Shown here in pieces: positions 853-47,542 of a DNA stretch of 64,000 nucleotides. The position numbers and the translations under genes were made by a program. A model generated the notes under the pieces. It was not told the DNA's origin. It searched no databases and saw only the letters and a program-made list of their open reading frames with translations. Position 1 is the first letter of the stretch; every line of letters starts with the position of its first letter. This stretch comes from a candidate division TM6 bacterium GW2011_GWF2_28_16 (GTDB lineage Bacteria > Patescibacteriota > Microgenomatia > UBA1400 > PJMF01): contig CP011212.1 in assembly GCA_001029715.1 (NCBI GenBank), positions 398,936 to 462,935 on the forward strand, given 5' to 3'.

Positions 853-1992
853 ATGAGTAACACTACCCTTCTAATATTATGTTTGTTTTTGATTTCAATT
901 TTAGCGACTTTTTATTTTTTGCTAAAAAAACTTTTGTCAGAAAAAAATTCAGAGCAATCTAGTGAACAACTGGAAGATATGGTTCACAAAGTTTTTGGCA
1001 TGGCTTCTAATGAAATTGCTATTCAAAGTAAAGGTATCCTGCAAGGTGAGAAAGATTTAATCAAGAATGATCTCTCTAATAAACAAGCTGCGATTGAAAA
1101 GATGATAAAAGATTTACGTCAAGAAATGGGTGACCAACAAAGAGAAATTCGTGCTATTGAAAAAGATCAGATTGATAAAATTAGTGGAGTTAAAACAGCT
1201 GTTGAAGAGCATCGCCAATTAACCAAGGAACTAAAAATTTCTACAGAGCAACTGGCCAAAGTTTTATCCAATAATCAGACTCGTGGAGCCTGGGGTGAAC
1301 GCATTATTGAAGATTTGTTGCAGGCCAATGGCTTGCAAGAAGGCATTCATTATCTACGTCAAGCTAAATTGGGCGCTTCAGAAATGAAGCCAGATATTAC
1401 CCTGCTTTTACCAGACCATCGCAACGTGGCAGTTGACGTTAAATTCCCGTATCAAGAAGTTCAAAAGATGTCGATGACTGAGGATCAGAGTGAAAAACAA
1501 AGTCATGTTTTGCAATTTAAAAGAGATCTTAAAATTAAAGTAGACAAAGTAGCTACCTATATTTCTCCAGAAAACGATACTTTAGATTACGCAATTATGT
1601 TTGTGCCAAATGAAGCTCTGTTTTCCTTTATCAATCAAAAGTTCCCAGACGTTATTGATGAGGCTTTAGCTAAAAAAGTAATTATTTGTTCGCCTTTTAG
1701 TTTCTTAATTGTGGCTCGCACAGTGATGGAAAGTTATCGTAACTTTATGGTGGGTAAAAAAATCAAACAAGTTATCAAACACATTGATGCTTTTGCAGGA
1801 GAATGGTTAAAATTTGACGATGAATTTTCTAAGTTTGGACGTAGTATCGAAACTTTGCAAAAAAACTACGAAACTCTTTCAACCACGAGGAAAAGACAGA
1901 TGGAAAAGAAGATTCAAAAGATTGAACAGTATCGCGGTAGTTCAGTAGAATTATTGGAAGATGGTGAAAAAGTTAAACTTCTAGAAGATTAA
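853..1992 (+). CDS. rmuC: DNA recombination protein RmuC family
   Basis: N-terminal TM plus long coiled-coil region. GAWGERIIEDLL (GxWGE motif) and PDITLLLPDHRNVAVDVKFP block typical of the RmuC nuclease-like domain. Confidence 0.7.
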   Translation: MSNTTLLILCLFLISILATFYFLLKKLLSEKNSEQSSEQLEDMVHKVFGMASNEIAIQSKGILQGEKDLIKNDLSNKQAAIEKMIKDLRQEMGDQQREIRAIEKDQIDKISGVKTAVEEHRQLTKELKISTEQLAKVLSNNQTRGAWGERIIEDLLQANGLQEGIHYLRQAKLGASEMKPDITLLLPDHRNVAVDVKFPYQEVQKMSMTEDQSEKQSHVLQFKRDLKIKVDKVATYISPENDTLDYAIMFVPNEALFSFINQKFPDVIDEALAKKVIICSPFSFLIVARTVMESYRNFMVGKKIKQVIKHIDAFAGEWLKFDDEFSKFGRSIETLQKNYETLSTTRKRQMEKKIQKIEQYRGSSVELLEDGEKVKLLED

Positions 1993-3128
1993 TCGTTTAA
2001 ATATTTTTCAAAAAAGCTAAGATCTTTTTGGACAGCTTGATTCCAATTGGGTTGTAAATTGTGATTAGCGCCTGGATATTTGTAGAAGTCAATATTTATT
2101 ACTTCCTTTTTTACTTCTTCCGCACTTTGACTGGCATCTGCGTTTTGAGCGCTAGTTGTAGCTCTCAATTCATTTTCTAAATCTACTTTAGCCAAAAATT
2201 CTTCTGTCCAAGAAATTAAGGCTGAGTCATCAGCAGTGCCATGTTGGATTTGAATCGGTCCATTTAATTTGTCTAAATGTTTGGTCAGCGAAAAATCAAA
2301 AACATCGTAATCATCCTCAAAAAGTGAAACATATTTACGAGTCTCTTTACCCTCATCTCCATATTCGTCACTGAAATAAAGAATTGAATATGGGAAAGGC
2401 ACCAGAACTGGTGCCCAAAGAGTAGTAGGCAGATTGCTACCAAGAACTTCTAGAGTAGAGATTGCAATTTGTCCACCATTACTATGTCCCCAAATGCCGA
2501 TTTGACTTGTATCAACGCTAACTTTTTTAATTGTTAGTTCAGTAATTTGACTAAGATCTATTTCTGGAAATGTTTGAATTGTTTTAATGAGATCAACTGC
2601 ATTGACGACTTTAATAAATCTAGCTTCCCAAGTATCAGTTGGCTCGGGATCACTTTCACCAAAGCCAAGAAAATCTGGAGCTAAAGTGAGGTAGTCGTTT
2701 TCTGCAAAGACAGCAGCAACATTTTTAGTACCTTCTCCAGAGTAATATGTTTCTAGAGGAACATAACCTCTAATCATTATTATGGTTGGTTTTTTTGTGT
2801 TCTCATTATCTATTTTCAAATTAAGTGCACCGGAAATTTTTTTACCCTGACTTTGATAAGTAAAAAGTAGGGCATATGTTTGCGTGTCCAAATCTTTAGA
2901 GATAATTTTTTCAATTCTGATTGGTGATGATACTTTAAATTCTTGTTTGCTTAAATTTTCAAAAGAATATTTAAGCAGTGGCAATGGTTTTTCTGTTTTT
3001 ATTTGTTTAACAATACTTTTTGCCAGAGGAGTTGATTCATTTTTTAAATAAAAATAAGCGATTAAAAAAGAAAGACAGCTACTTATTATCAATAGTAAAC
3101 ATATGAAGATTATTTTTTTTGTTTTCAC
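1989..3128 (-). CDS. Secreted/membrane-anchored alpha/beta-hydrolase (esterase/peptidase S9-like)
   Basis: N-terminal signal/TM. GHSNGG nucleophile elbow (GxSxG), downstream Asp/His candidates. 379 aa. Confidence 0.7.
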   Translation of the reverse strand: MKTKKIIFICLLLIISSCLSFLIAYFYLKNESTPLAKSIVKQIKTEKPLPLLKYSFENLSKQEFKVSSPIRIEKIISKDLDTQTYALLFTYQSQGKKISGALNLKIDNENTKKPTIIMIRGYVPLETYYSGEGTKNVAAVFAENDYLTLAPDFLGFGESDPEPTDTWEARFIKVVNAVDLIKTIQTFPEIDLSQITELTIKKVSVDTSQIGIWGHSNGGQIAISTLEVLGSNLPTTLWAPVLVPFPYSILYFSDEYGDEGKETRKYVSLFEDDYDVFDFSLTKHLDKLNGPIQIQHGTADDSALISWTEEFLAKVDLENELRATTSAQNADASQSAEEVKKEVINIDFYKYPGANHNLQPNWNQAVQKDLSFFEKYLND

Positions 3129-3174
3129 TCAGCAAATTATAGCAGTCTTGCTAACTTTTCTTCAAAATTGATGC

Positions 3175-3203
3175 TTGCTAAAATACCAGATCATATTTAA
3201 AAT
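3175..3203 (+). promoter_or_regulatory. Candidate sigma70-type promoter (TTGCTA-N17-TAAAAT) driving a short transcript
   Basis: TTGCTA at 3175-3180 and TAAAAT at 3198-3203, with a 17-nt spacer, in otherwise non-coding DNA. Confidence 0.35.
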
Positions 3204-3314
3204 CTTTCAACATGTCGTTAATTACAAATTACTCCCATTTTTTCTTGGTCATTTTGCGCAAGAACGTTGCGGGGTAATCTTGTTGCATTAAAACAGATAA
3301 AAAACAAGAACAAG

Positions 3315-3340
3315 CCCCGCCTTAAGAAGCGGGTTTTTTT
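3315..3340 (+). terminator. Rho-independent terminator (CCCCGC-loop-GCGGG followed by T7)
   Basis: GC stem 3315-3320/3329-3333, 8-nt loop, TTTTTTT 3334-3340. Together with the upstream promoter it delimits a ~130-nt transcript. Confidence 0.55.
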
Positions 3341-3476
3341 GTATTTTTGATCTTTAACATTAACTAAGGGCTACTTTAGTCTTCAATTATTTGAAAGTTA
3401 AGGTAACCCTTTGTGGCTAGAGCAAATCAGCGCTCTAGTTTCGAAGGGAAAATTTTTCATGGTGGAGGAGAAAACA

Positions 3477-3590
3477 ATGGCAATAGGCAAGGGTAAGCAA
3501 AAAAAGTCTTCCGAACATTTGCCGAGATGCCCCCTTTGTGGGGGAAAACACAGGGCAAAATATTGTCCAAGAAAGCAAAAACCCTCTTAA
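3477..3590 (+). CDS. Tiny basic zinc-knuckle-like protein (37 aa), hypothetical
   Basis: ATG preceded by GGAGGAG 8 nt upstream. MAIGKGKQKKSSEHLPRCPLCGGKHRAKYCPRKQKPS with C-x2-C-x3-H-x4-C. Followed 6 nt later by a perfect 11-bp hairpin. Confidence 0.35.
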   Translation: MAIGKGKQKKSSEHLPRCPLCGGKHRAKYCPRKQKPS

Positions 3591-3596
3591 CCAAAG

Positions 3597-3622
3597 CCTC
3601 CGGTCCAGTAATGGACCGGAGG
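3597..3622 (+). other. Perfect 11-bp GC-rich hairpin (CCTCCGGTCCA-GTAAT-TGGACCGGAGG)
   Basis: Read directly from sequence. Lies immediately after the 37-aa ORF; the following 16 nt are AT-rich with TTTATTTT. Confidence 0.55.
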
Positions 3623-3754
3623 CAACAACATTTATTTTGACCAGGATCCTTAATTTTTAAATATTTGAAATTTAAGAATCCTCGTTTTTTTTCTAGAGCT
3701 AGCGCAAAGCGCGCCAATCTTTGGAAAGAGGAAATCTTTTTGGGAGGGTCGTCG

Positions 3755-3811
3755 ATGAAGAAAGATAAGAAGAAGAAAAAAGGACATCGTAATAAAAAAG
3801 GCAACAAGTAG
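3755..3811 (+). CDS. Tiny poly-lysine peptide ORF (18 aa), hypothetical leader or micro-protein
   Basis: ATG preceded by GGGAGGG 7 nt upstream. MKKDKKKKKGHRNKKGNK encoded by an AAG/AAA run. Followed by a perfect 9-bp hairpin. Confidence 0.3.
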   Translation: MKKDKKKKKGHRNKKGNK

Positions 3812-3840
3812 TCGCCTTTAGGTGTCCAACCCTCAATCTT

Positions 3841-3866
3841 TGGTGGCGCCATTTATTTGGCGCCAC
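3841..3866 (+). other. Perfect 9-bp GC hairpin (GGTGGCGCC-ATTTATTT-GGCGCCACC)
   Basis: Read directly from sequence. Lies 30 nt downstream of the 18-aa ORF and ~70 nt upstream of the aspS start. Confidence 0.55.
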
Positions 3867-3934
3867 CAAAATCTTTCCCTTCCTATATTATCTAAAACCT
3901 CTTTTTCAAATTTCGGTTATAATAACTCTTACCT

Positions 3935-5356
3935 ATGCAAAGAACTCTCGTTATTGATTCCTTAGAAAAAGTTGGTCAAACTGTTCGCCTCTGTGGTTGG
4001 GTGGATAGCAAGCGTGATCACGGTAAAGTTACTTTCATTGATTTAAGAGATCGTACTGGCAAGATCCAGGCCGTTGGTATTGGTGGCAAATTGAGTGAGT
4101 TAAGCAATGAGTCAGTTGTTGAAATCACTGGACCAATCAATACTCGTGGCGAAAAAATGGTCAACCCAAATTTGCCAACTGGCTCCATAGAGATTTTTGT
4201 TGAAGATTATAAGGTTCTCAATAAGGCAGCTGAGCTACCAATTCTTGTGGAAGGTGATGGTCGTGATGTTAATGAAGAGATGCGTCTTAAGTATCGCTAT
4301 TTAGATTTGCGTCGTGAGAGAATGCAAAAAATTGTGCGCTTGCGCTCTAAATTTTATCAAGCTCTTCGTGAGCAATTAGAGAAAAAAGATTTTACCGAAG
4401 TTGAAACTCCAATGTTGACCAAATCAACTAAGGAAGGAGCTCGTGATTTCATCGTGCCTTCTCGTTTTAATCCTGGTAAATTTTATGCTCTTCCGCAAAG
4501 TCCTCAACAATATAAACAATTATTGATGACGGCTGGTGTTGAGAATTATTATCAATTTGCTCGTTGTATTCGCGATGAAGATTTACGTGCTGATCGCGGT
4601 TTTGAATTTACTCAGCTTGATCTCGAAATGAGTTTTGTGACTCAACAAGAAGTAATGGATAATGTCGAAGAAATTGTCAAAAATGCTGTCAAAAAAGTTG
4701 GCGCCAAACTCAAAGATGAAGTTTTTCCAGTTATTCCTTACAAAGAAGCAATTGAAAAATATGGTGCCGATAAATTTGATTTGCGCAGTGAGGAAGAAAA
4801 AAAAGAAAATGTTTTAGCTTTTGCTTGGGTGGTTAGTTTCCCATTCTTTAAAAAAGTTGATAAAAAAGACATTGCTGAAGTGCGCGATGGTAAGAGTGGT
4901 TGGACTTTCACTCATAATCCTTTTTCGAGTCCAATTCCAGAATCTATGGAAGATCATAAGAATGCTGAAAATATCGAAAATATTATTACCGCTCAGTATG
5001 ACTTGGTCTGTAATGGTTACGAAGCAGGTGGCGGCAGTATTAGAGCTCATGATCCAGAAGTTCTTAAAAAGACCTTTGAAATCATGGGTTATAGTGATCA
5101 GGAGATTGAAGCCAGTGTGGGCCATATGTTGGAAGCTTTTAAATTGGGCACTCCTCCCCATGGTGGAATTGCTTTAGGACTAGATCGCTTAGTAATGCTT
5201 TTGGCAGGAGAGAATTCACTCAAAGAAACCATTGCTTTCCCAATGAGTTCTTCTGGCAAGACCTCTATCATGGACGCACCAAGCGAAGTTTCTGATGAAC
5301 AACTCAAAGAGTTAGGTATTCTAATCGCTCCTAATTTAGCTACAATGAAAAAGTGA
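3935..5356 (+). CDS. aspS: Aspartyl-tRNA synthetase, bacterial-type core but lacking the GAD insertion domain (473 aa)
   Basis: QSPQQYKQLLM block, CIRDEDLRADRGFEFTQLDLEM (motif 2 region) and GLDRLVMLL (motif 3). A TATAAT box sits 12 nt upstream of the ATG, suggesting a leaderless or near-leaderless mRNA. Confidence 0.8.
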   Translation: MQRTLVIDSLEKVGQTVRLCGWVDSKRDHGKVTFIDLRDRTGKIQAVGIGGKLSELSNESVVEITGPINTRGEKMVNPNLPTGSIEIFVEDYKVLNKAAELPILVEGDGRDVNEEMRLKYRYLDLRRERMQKIVRLRSKFYQALREQLEKKDFTEVETPMLTKSTKEGARDFIVPSRFNPGKFYALPQSPQQYKQLLMTAGVENYYQFARCIRDEDLRADRGFEFTQLDLEMSFVTQQEVMDNVEEIVKNAVKKVGAKLKDEVFPVIPYKEAIEKYGADKFDLRSEEEKKENVLAFAWVVSFPFFKKVDKKDIAEVRDGKSGWTFTHNPFSSPIPESMEDHKNAENIENIITAQYDLVCNGYEAGGGSIRAHDPEVLKKTFEIMGYSDQEIEASVGHMLEAFKLGTPPHGGIALGLDRLVMLLAGENSLKETIAFPMSSSGKTSIMDAPSEVSDEQLKELGILIAPNLATMKK

Positions 5357-46560: not shown

Positions 46561-46770
46561 AATATTTTTATAAAATTACCGCTTGCGCTGATTCTCAATT
46601 CTTGCTACTTTAATTATTGCTGTGGAACATAGTGAAAATCTATGACTGTGCCGCAACGGTAATTCCTTTTTAAGGATTAGTCCGATCTTCAGCAAAAGAG
46701 AAATCTTGACGAGCATCGAGGCTGTATATTTTACTGTCGATGCTCCCTAAAGGGGAGCTTTTTTGTTCAA
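46561..46770 (+). promoter_or_regulatory. Structured leader with alternative hairpins ending in an intrinsic terminator (attenuator/riboswitch-like)
   Basis: Hairpin A is GAGCATCGA (46711-46719) / TCGATGCTC (46736-46744). Its 3' arm overlaps the 5' arm of the terminator GCTCCC(46742-46747)-TAAA-GGGAGC + T6. A further long-range stem lies upstream. Confidence 0.4.
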
Positions 46771-46840
46771 AGAACCACGGCTATTAATATTATTAATAGT
46801 TATCTTCGTGGTTAATTTCTGCGAAGTAAGAAAGGTTTTT

Positions 46841-47542
46841 ATGAACACAAAAGCTATCGAAATGGCAGGCAGTATTGGAATTGAGCTAAGCCAAATAAAT
46901 TCAGAATGGACTTCTCTTCAAAGCATTGATTCTTCTTCAATATTAGAGAATGCAGGTAAGGAAGCAGGCATAGAAGATCGTCAGTGGCAAAAATTGCTTT
47001 CTCAAGCTGGTTCTTGGGTGATTGATGGTTTGGATAAAAAGATATTTGAAATACAAAATAAAGTAATTGAGCAAACAACTGCCATTGAGTTAAGAAAAAT
47101 GTTTGGTGTTCCACTTTCATTGCTAGCAATGCCTGTTTTTGTAGAGTTGGCAGGAATGGAATTGGCAGCGAAAATTGATTTGAAAAAAGAAGCCATGATG
47201 ACCTCTCAAATTTGGGAACAAATTAATAACAGAGTTTTATATATGGTTCAACTTTTCTTAGCAGAGCAAATCAATTTGGTCGAAGATGAAGAAAAAGCTC
47301 ATCAGAGTGCTTTGAGTGAATCAAAGAAAGAAGCCGACGGAGTCTCTGGTTTATCAGAAACGGTGGGAGCTGTGGAGAATCAATTTGCTTCAAAGCTGGA
47401 AAAACTAAAAGATAAGAAAGAATCTTTAATAAGTGTTTTCAAAAAGATTGGTGGAGATTTAGTTAATACTGTTGAGAGAGCTTTTGAGACTACTGTTTTT
47501 AGTGCGAGTAGGCAAAGTACTGCTGTTACGGTGATTCAATAA
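46841..47542 (+). CDS. Hypothetical all-alpha protein
   Basis: Start chosen at ATG 46841 with AAGAAAGG SD (MNTKAIEMAGS...); the track TTG start at 46763 lies inside the terminator. Confidence 0.5.
   Translation: MNTKAIEMAGSIGIELSQINSEWTSLQSIDSSSILENAGKEAGIEDRQWQKLLSQAGSWVIDGLDKKIFEIQNKVIEQTTAIELRKMFGVPLSLLAMPVFVELAGMELAAKIDLKKEAMMTSQIWEQINNRVLYMVQLFLAEQINLVEDEEKAHQSALSESKKEADGVSGLSETVGAVENQFASKLEKLKDKKESLISVFKKIGGDLVNTVERAFETTVFSASRQSTAVTVIQ

Follow-up and report, generated by a model that had tools for sequence, protein, structure and literature searches.

A putative poly-lysine micro-gene in one of two tandem leader-RNA cassettes upstream of aspS in a Patescibacteria genome

The DNA analysed here (the window) is a stretch of 64,000 nucleotides (nt) of contig CP011212.1, deposited as candidate division TM6 bacterium GW2011_GWF2_28_16 (positions 398,936 to 462,935 of the forward strand). 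The subject of this work is an open reading frame (ORF) of 18 codons, most of them for Lys (the poly-Lys ORF), placed in an 806-nt intergenic region (3129-3934) between a divergent gene for a Peptidase_S9-like hydrolase and aspS, the gene of aspartyl-tRNA synthetase (AspRS). The intergenic region contains two homologous tandem units, each composed of a leader with two hairpins, a Shine-Dalgarno (SD) sequence, a very small ORF and a hairpin resembling a terminator, and the poly-Lys ORF belongs to the second of them. It is probably a genuine micro-gene, translated into a polycationic peptide as the cargo of a self-contained cassette and expressed independently of aspS. The elements of the region, numbered from the first nucleotide of the window, are the following.

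1989-3128, minus strand: Peptidase_S9-like gene, the divergent neighbour that bounds the intergenic region on one side.
3345-3458, plus strand: 5' leader RNA of unit 1, with P0 and its extension (P0ext) at about 3366-3411 and P1/P2 at 3407-3448; 96.8 bits with the leader covariance model R1, fold z = -3.5.
3464-3470, plus strand: SD of unit 1, GGAGGAG, read from the sequence; AGGAGG is kept in relatives.
3477-3590, plus strand: ORF of 37 amino acids (aa), MAIGKGKQKKSSEHLPRCPLCGGKHRAKYCPRKQKPS, of the CPxCG/CCHC zinc-knuckle type; cargo of the paralogous cassette, with a motif invariant in at least 8 lineages.
3596-3623, plus strand: 12-bp hairpin closing unit 1, fold z = -7.35.
3628-3737, plus strand: 5' leader RNA of unit 2, with P0/P0ext formed by about 3644-3660 and 3665-3681 and P1/P2 at about 3682-3731; 71.8 bits with R1, E = 5e-15.
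3742-3748, plus strand: SD of the poly-Lys ORF, GGGAGGG, 6 nt before the ATG, read from the sequence.
3755-3811, plus strand: poly-Lys ORF MKKDKKKKKGHRNKKGNK, 18 codons and a TAG stop (3809-3811), with orthologues in the related loci L014/L084, L087, L005 and L088.
3839-3870, plus strand: terminator-like hairpin found by folding, with a 13-bp stem (3839-3851 with 3858-3870) and a 6-nt loop, followed by AUCUUUCCC.
3918-3923, plus strand: -10 box of aspS, TATAAT, 11 nt before the aspS ATG (3935), with no SD; recognised by comparison of relatives.
3935-5356, plus strand: aspS, 473 aa, with the Pfam domains tRNA_anti-codon and tRNA-synt_2; the downstream neighbour, outside the cassette.

Ten of the 18 residues of the peptide are Lys, one is Asp and two are Asn; there are no hydrophobic residues, and the computed isoelectric point (pI) and charge are about 10.9 and about +9.6. 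A preliminary description of this segment, made from its letters, had drawn attention to the Lys-rich ORF, its SD and a perfect 9-bp hairpin behind it. All three were confirmed. The ORF extends from the ATG at 3755 to the TAG and the SD is present just outside the start coordinate given in that description. The core of the hairpin, GGTGGCGCC (3842-3850) paired with GGCGCCACC (3859-3867), lies within a stem that actually extends to 13 bp. The hairpin begins 28 nt past the poly-Lys stop codon, and the fold of the 3800-3900 segment (-32.7 kcal/mol, z = -6.3) was not equalled in stability by any of 200 shuffled sequences. In L005, L014, L087 and L088 the stem is identical, the loop varies and the tail reads AUCUUUU. 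A terminator consensus scan made no call on the 3839-3870 hairpin, which is followed by AUCUUUCCC in the window; the combination of invariant stem, variable loop and AUCUUUU tail in the relatives fits a terminator.

The region upstream of aspS was scanned in 80 relatives and further loci were fetched via aspS homologues. These loci carry L-numbers, and all the related ones come from metagenome-assembled genomes of Patescibacteria. Lys/Arg-rich frames were sought with ATG, GTG or TTG as the start; a scan limited to ATG misses the GTG-start orthologues. A comparative alignment of the aspS upstream region, proposed as a check in the preliminary description, and the further loci together revealed that the ORF is conserved in four other species-level relatives. 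Including the window, five distinct versions in two subtypes (18 and 15 residues) were obtained.

Window: ATG start, MKKDKKKKKGHRNKKGNK.
L014 (near-identical in L084): GTG start, MKKEKKKKKGHRNKKGNK.
L087: ATG start, peptide the same as in the window.
L005: GTG start, MKKDKKKKRGHKKKH.
L088: GTG start, MKKEKKKKRGHKKKH.

The consensus of the L005 and L088 peptides is MKK[DE]KKKKRGHKKKH. The three versions of the 18-residue subtype differ at 10 sites, nine of which fall at codon position 3 and the tenth of which is the ATG/GTG start; at least nine of ten variable sites would fall at position 3 with a probability of 3.6e-4. The third-position changes touch the codons for His, Arg, Asn and Asp as well as the stop (TAG or TAA). 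Within codons 2-18, where 15 % of the possible single substitutions are synonymous, 8-9 synonymous changes and a lone replacement (D to E) were observed. The window and L087 are 100 % identical in the peptide, 89.5 % in the ORF and 66.9 % in the leader. At the position matching the poly-Lys SD the relatives L005, L014, L087 and L088 have GGAGGGG or GGAGGGGG. An in-frame stop is located 7 codons upstream of the start in L014, L087 and L088, so the TTG-initiated N-terminal extensions that are possible in the window are not conserved and the boundaries of the ORF are fixed.

In an intergenic region of 806 nt, chance alone might produce a short ORF preceded by an SD, but conservation in four other lineages with a coding substitution pattern lifts the poly-Lys ORF above chance. 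The nearly exclusive synonymous change, the retained stop codon, the interchange of ATG and GTG and the identity of the peptide despite leader divergence indicate, at the level of sequence comparison, that the ORF is translated and under purifying selection, and that a drifting relic can be ruled out. Such a relic was among the possibilities raised in the preliminary description. It would be a duplicated zinc-knuckle cassette that lost the Cys/His core and is drifting toward loss, in line with the homology of the unit-2 and unit-1 leaders, the lack of the cassette in about half of the clade lineages, two mismatches in P2 of the window and the loss of the knuckle also from the unit-1 ORF of L005 and L088. 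Drift would, however, bring frameshifts and replacements, and what the five lineages contain is synonymous-only divergence behind a strong, correctly spaced SD, with an L087 peptide left unchanged by 33 % divergence of its leader. This pattern contradicts decay, which is considered very unlikely.

It had also been suggested that the AAG/AAA runs of the Lys codons are prone to ribosome sliding. Sliding or programmed frameshifting on A-runs was considered and rejected: the runs do not exceed 6 nt in the window and 8 nt in the relatives, AAA and AAG interchange freely, and no selected slippery site was seen.

The two homologous cassettes, their conserved structured leader and the zinc-knuckle paralogue upstream were missed in the preliminary description. 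In 19 aligned leaders 91 % of the cells of P1/P2 hold standard pairs and 12 of its 16 pairs show double-sided changes, which was matched by none of 500 shuffles; on sliding the 3' partner the pairing fell to 30-63 %. P0 with its extension is paired in 85 % of the cells, with double-sided changes at 13 of 21 pairs. Several positions are conserved G-U pairs, which the opposite strand would turn into C-A mismatches; the structure is thus one of the plus-strand RNA and not a DNA palindrome. The covariance model of the leader, R1, was run on the window and 13 related loci and detected 21 plus-strand copies, all in this intergenic position ahead of small ORFs (sORFs), exactly two of them in the 64-kb window; two further copies were found in L092. 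Outside the window the leader is present in L004, L005, L007, L009, L010, L011, L013, L014, L024, L085-L088 and L092, and an SD and a small ORF stand behind every copy. Hairpins of the form CCTCCG...CGGAGG, equivalent to the one closing unit 1, occur in L004, L007, L014, L086 and L087. A cmscan search of the 3000-4100 segment against Rfam 15 at E <= 10 gave only chance-level matches, far below the gathering scores, and at gathering thresholds the whole window yielded two tRNAs and an adenosylcobalamin (AdoCbl) riboswitch.

The predicted accessibility of the SD across the 21 units ranged from 0.06 to 1.0, with no consistent SD-sequestering helix involving the CCUC arm of the leader. A conformational switch is possible, since the P0 extension and the 5' arm of P1 draw on the same bases. 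Structured 5' untranslated regions (5' UTRs) are known from the mRNA leaders of ribosomal proteins and cold-shock proteins, where small proteins that bind nucleic acids are controlled autogenously or through a change of conformation. The leader described here resembles them in its conserved and covarying structure, which occupies about 90-110 nt of the 5' UTR and precedes the SD of a small, basic protein's gene; it differs in that one leader precedes several unrelated cargo peptides and has no match in Rfam.

Since the structural covariation is clear, and in some pairs of loci the leader is conserved as well as the ORF or better, the functional product could be the RNA itself, a small RNA or a cis-acting element, with the ORF incidental or secondary in a dual-function RNA. 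Such a transcript would be short, at about 200-250 nt. Selection at the RNA level leaves unexplained the codon-position pattern and the fixed boundaries of the ORF, and it has to be set against the SD and small ORF that follow every copy of the leader, so an RNA product is improbable.

The gene of unit 1, which is unannotated, lies 165 nt upstream of the poly-Lys ORF. Its product has Lys-rich tails and the motif C-x2-C-G-x2-H-x4-C-P, characteristic of a CCHC zinc knuckle of the CPxCG type; in L005 and L088 the unit-1 ORF has no knuckle. The knuckle shows weak, sub-threshold similarity to the zinc knuckles of eIF3g and retroviruses. The family profile found no homologue among 5.8 billion proteins, and an exhaustive search of 1.84 billion representatives returned only three large repeat proteins, from which it follows that these mini-genes are not in the protein databases. 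A small CPxCG zinc-finger protein, Brz, has been described in haloarchaea (PMC2253796). Like Brz, the 37-aa CPxCG ORF lies directly upstream of a larger gene in the same orientation. Unlike Brz, it belongs to a bacterium and has one CPxCG and not two, with the spacing C-x2-C-x3-H-x4-C.

The cargo classes found behind the leader are the CCHC knuckle, C4 zinc-ribbons, the poly-Lys peptide and a Lys/Arg-rich peptide in L085. Copies detected by R1 outside its training set precede other mini-ORFs, namely MARAWCRKCQRVTVFKNGQCQRCCRGK in L011 and MKCQNCGRKVPDDCNICPYCKHKPSFVLVIRRS in L013. The poly-Lys peptide differs from CPxCG/CCHC zinc-finger proteins in having no Cys, and cannot bind zinc in their way; the ligands are present only in the unit-1 ORF. 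Lys/Arg-rich, Cys-free sORFs were also recovered just upstream of aspS in three other loci.

L085, 1354-1422: MAKRRKKSRNERHGKKKGGKAS, behind a unit-1-type leader.
L008, 2824-2910: MASKKKKSRNEKNGKTKGGKNAPNQKGR.
L091, about 1822-1890: MKKSKKIQNRRRRKGRPGVKKNN.

These three sORFs encode 22-28 residues and have a conserved SD, GGAGGTGA, and a TTG start. No R1 leader copy was found in the L008 and L091 loci, and in L091 the gene caller had called an overlapping 35-aa frame in place of the sORF.

Public annotation places a different gene in this region. A minus-strand ORF of 131 aa (3457-3852), antisense to both mini-genes, is called a hypothetical protein in three public assemblies of this organism, and if it were the real gene both small plus-strand ORFs would be artefacts. 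Its frame is broken in all four relatives sharing the region, where the longest stop-free stretch is 64-86 aa, and it has no Pfam or NCBIfam match. It also crosses two strong hairpins and two SDs, and relatives with a single cassette cannot encode it. On these comparisons the 131-aa annotation is spurious, the frame being an artefact of the two Lys-rich ORFs on the opposite strand, and a real antisense gene is hardly conceivable.

The relation of the poly-Lys ORF to aspS was considered separately. Within the close clade the start of aspS has the form TATAAT-N11-ATG (N9 in L011), with no SD and with a conserved purine at -4, and a -10 box followed by the ATG recurs in many more distant relatives with a different upstream context. 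The preliminary description was right about the TATAAT box, which lies 11 and not 12 nt before the ATG, and its proposal that aspS is leaderless is supported comparatively, the predicted leader being absent or about 4 nt long. The arrangement TATAAT-N11-ATG is kept in L004, L007 and L086, which carry the zinc-knuckle cassette only; in L006, L012, L090 and L093, which have no cassette, there is a -10-like box near the aspS ATG and no SD. Because the promoter is present in relatives lacking the poly-Lys ORF, aspS does not need this ORF. The window has an insertion of about 22-27 nt (CCCTTCCTATATTATCTAAAACCTC...) at 3871-3917 (plus strand), between the tail of the unit-2 hairpin and the aspS promoter, which is absent from the four relatives and partly repeats the promoter-proximal sequence AAATCTTT...TTTC.

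Starts of the aspS kind look common in this genome. Among 54 large ORFs of the window (at least 150 aa) 7 have an SD-like motif and 14 have no SD but a hexamer resembling a -10 box at a distance of 5-13 nt from the start codon, both counts being rough as the starts were those of the longest ORF and not curated. Leaderless or near-leaderless initiation may thus be the norm in this genome, and against the background of the window the SDs of the two mini-ORFs are unusually strong.

In the known transcription attenuators of the trp, his and pheA type, a leader peptide controls the downstream gene. The poly-Lys ORF shares with them the form of a short ORF rich in a single amino acid, followed by a GC-rich hairpin and located upstream of an aminoacyl-tRNA-related gene. 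The preliminary description accordingly proposed a translation-coupled regulatory leader, and an upstream ORF (uORF) acting on aspS by attenuation at the hairpin or by translational coupling would agree with the position of the poly-Lys ORF, which lies 123 nt before aspS in the same orientation and is followed by a strong hairpin, and with the recurrence of tiny basic sORFs immediately upstream of aspS across the clade. Several differences from the attenuators speak against it. The aspS gene has its own conserved TATAAT, located between the hairpin and aspS and shared by relatives devoid of the poly-Lys ORF or of any cassette. The ORF has 10 Lys codons against one Asp and two Asn codons, and Lys starvation is not the signal expected for aspS. 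No competing antiterminator helix was found in the minimum free energy (MFE) or centroid fold of 3800-3900, in which the hairpin stands 28 nt past the stop. Finally, the peptide is conserved beyond the Lys run, in its G, H, R and N residues, which a sensor based on a run of codons would not need. With an own promoter of aspS, no antiterminator and codons for Lys, an attenuating or coupled-leader role toward aspS is highly unlikely.

The favoured reading, in which the poly-Lys ORF is an independently expressed micro-gene, was proposed in the preliminary description as a charged micro-protein and is strengthened by the conserved ORF, its nearly only synonymous change, the kept stop and the interchangeable ATG and GTG. 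According to this reading the cassette would consist of the two-hairpin 5' leader RNA, the strong SD, the ORF and the terminator-like hairpin. It would derive from the adjacent zinc-knuckle cassette, duplicated in tandem, and would form part of a lineage-specific set of leader-sharing mini-genes between the peptidase gene and aspS in the Pacebacteria/Microgenomates clade, with aspS transcribed from its own -10 box and starting near-leaderless. A strong SD in a genome with few SDs suggests that the peptide is made in quantity. A published survey reports a lower frequency of the anti-SD motif for a Parcubacteria subgroup alone, with the anti-SD retained elsewhere (PMC9297842).

With a charge of about +10 and no hydrophobic residues, the peptide would have scarcely any conceivable activity but the binding of a polyanion. 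The analogy to bL37 and bS22 and the zinc-knuckle paralogue make RNA its likeliest partner, most plausibly rRNA or the ribosome. The translation-related surroundings of the cassettes (metG, aspS, a gene for a class-I Glu/Gln-tRNA synthetase and ybeY) were counted in favour of the micro-gene. An ultra-short basic ribosomal protein is known from Thermus as Thx. Others are bL37 (24 aa, pI 12.0) and bS22 (33 aa, pI 12.75), both of Actinobacteria, and eL41 (PMC10081302). At 18 aa, with a pI of 10.9 and a charge of +9.6, the poly-Lys peptide is likewise short and basic; in common with bL37, bS22 and eL41, which sit in rRNA crevices and are non-essential, it would be extremely Lys/Arg-rich, unstructured, encoded by a stand-alone, often unannotated gene and plausibly made in stoichiometric amounts. 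In contrast to bL37 and bS22 it is shorter (18 or 15 aa), dominated by Lys in place of an Arg/Lys mix, and patchy among species-level relatives.

The shared leader most likely provides the mini-genes with common post-transcriptional control or mRNA stability, and feedback by the basic peptides is possible. A bolder proposal is that the two-hairpin leader is a new, Patescibacteria-specific portable module for the expression and regulation of a changing range of ultra-small basic or zinc-binding proteins, with the poly-Lys cargo a new polycation associated with the ribosome or tRNA; this is a tentative idea and rather doubtful as a whole. The peptide might then be a filler of rRNA in reduced ribosomes, similar to bS22 or eL41. 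It might also do in trans what the N-terminal extensions of eukaryotic class IIb synthetases do, which are Lys-rich and bind tRNA; its lasting place beside aspS would thereby be explained.

A number of points weigh against the micro-gene and its proposed role. Only five distinct ORF sequences in two subtypes are available, all from close relatives (aspS 87-90 % identical). Position 3 is the only one at which Lys codons can vary, and A/G toggling within the AAR tract therefore contributes to the third-position excess; this is offset by the similar pattern of the His, Arg, Asn, Asp and stop codons. The P2 helix of unit 2 in the window, with its two mismatches, is no more stable than shuffled sequences (z = -0.4). 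As to a promoter of the cassettes, only weak -10-like hexamers (TATTTT, TAACAT) are present just 5' of the first hairpin and none is convincing. The bS22-like label used in the preliminary description found no sequence support: the peptide, searched as a tandem dimer, matched neither bS22/DUF1713 (PF08213) nor any other Pfam family at E <= 10, and phmmer with a 23-aa N-extended form gave 0 matches at E <= 10 among PDB chains of at least 20 residues, both being weak tests for so short and low-complexity a query. The cassette is patchy in the clade (absent from L004, L007, L085, L086 and L089) and can therefore be dispensed with, which speaks against a role at the core of the ribosome.

The poly-Lys cassette occurs in 5 of about 10 lineages of the subclade with a 473-aa aspS. 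In a neighbour-joining AspRS tree, which is not robust at this depth, the carrier lineages are interleaved with non-carriers. A scan of metagenomes with the unit-2 leader pattern yielded one locus, the near-duplicate of L014 (L084). The cassette is accessory, and was either ancestral and repeatedly lost or moved between lineages.

The hydrolase gene on the other side of the cassettes encodes a membrane-anchored protein and its synteny is conserved. With a highly cationic peptide and diverse cargo behind one leader, this opens the possibility of an exported or host-directed, antimicrobial-like peptide, or of a precursor of a modified peptide, with the divergent S9-family peptidase as a possible participant. 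Neither a signal or leader peptide nor a hydrophobic face is present in the poly-Lys peptide, the neighbourhood contains no transporter or modification enzyme, and the paralogues with a zinc knuckle or zinc ribbon resemble proteins that bind nucleic acids inside the cell, which makes this reading quite improbable.

If translated, the poly-Lys ORF would rank with the shortest protein genes for which purifying selection has been demonstrated. Its host lineage, the candidate phyla radiation (CPR/Patescibacteria), has reduced ribosomes and proteomes that have barely been studied experimentally. Standard gene callers miss the mini-genes and annotate the false 131-aa antisense protein in their place. 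The covarying leader, absent from Rfam, links unrelated mini-proteins (poly-Lys, CPxCG knuckle and C4 ribbons) into one regulatory group, and the finding as a whole offers an entry point to small-protein biology and post-transcriptional control in organisms in which most mRNAs seem to be without an SD. No new mechanism of aspS regulation is revealed.

The aspartyl-tRNA synthetase recorded for Candidatus Pacebacteria bacterium GW2011_GWF2_38_9 matches the aspS product of the window with 100 % identity. Besides aspS, the genes located nearby are metG, the gene for the class-I Glu/Gln-tRNA synthetase, ybeY and a gene for a DNA polymerase III subunit.

A third conserved micro-gene was recognised in the same intergenic region.

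3198-3340, plus strand: 21-aa ORF MSLITNYSHFFLVILRKNVAG (-10 box 3198-3203, ORF 3212-3277, terminator 3313-3340), leaderless and with no SD.

Its -10 box (TAAAAT or TATAAT) lies 7-8 nt before the ATG, a terminator made of a GC stem plus T7 follows, and 11 lineages retain NYxHFFL[VI]ILRKNVxG as a motif of the peptide. The 3' end of the ORF (GCGGGG) can pair with the 5' arm of the terminator, which gives an attenuator-like geometry. A role as an attenuator of the cassettes was rejected as the main model: the antiterminator is paired in 93 % of the cells but shows no double-sided covariation, and the element is inverted in L091, L006 and L090. Given this opposite orientation, the 21-aa ORF is probably an independent small gene.

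The riboswitch revealed by the Rfam search is distant from the cassettes.

46597-46756, plus strand: AdoCbl (cobalamin) riboswitch, 55.6 bits, above the Rfam gathering score.

It is located directly upstream of a 259-aa ORF (46763-47542).

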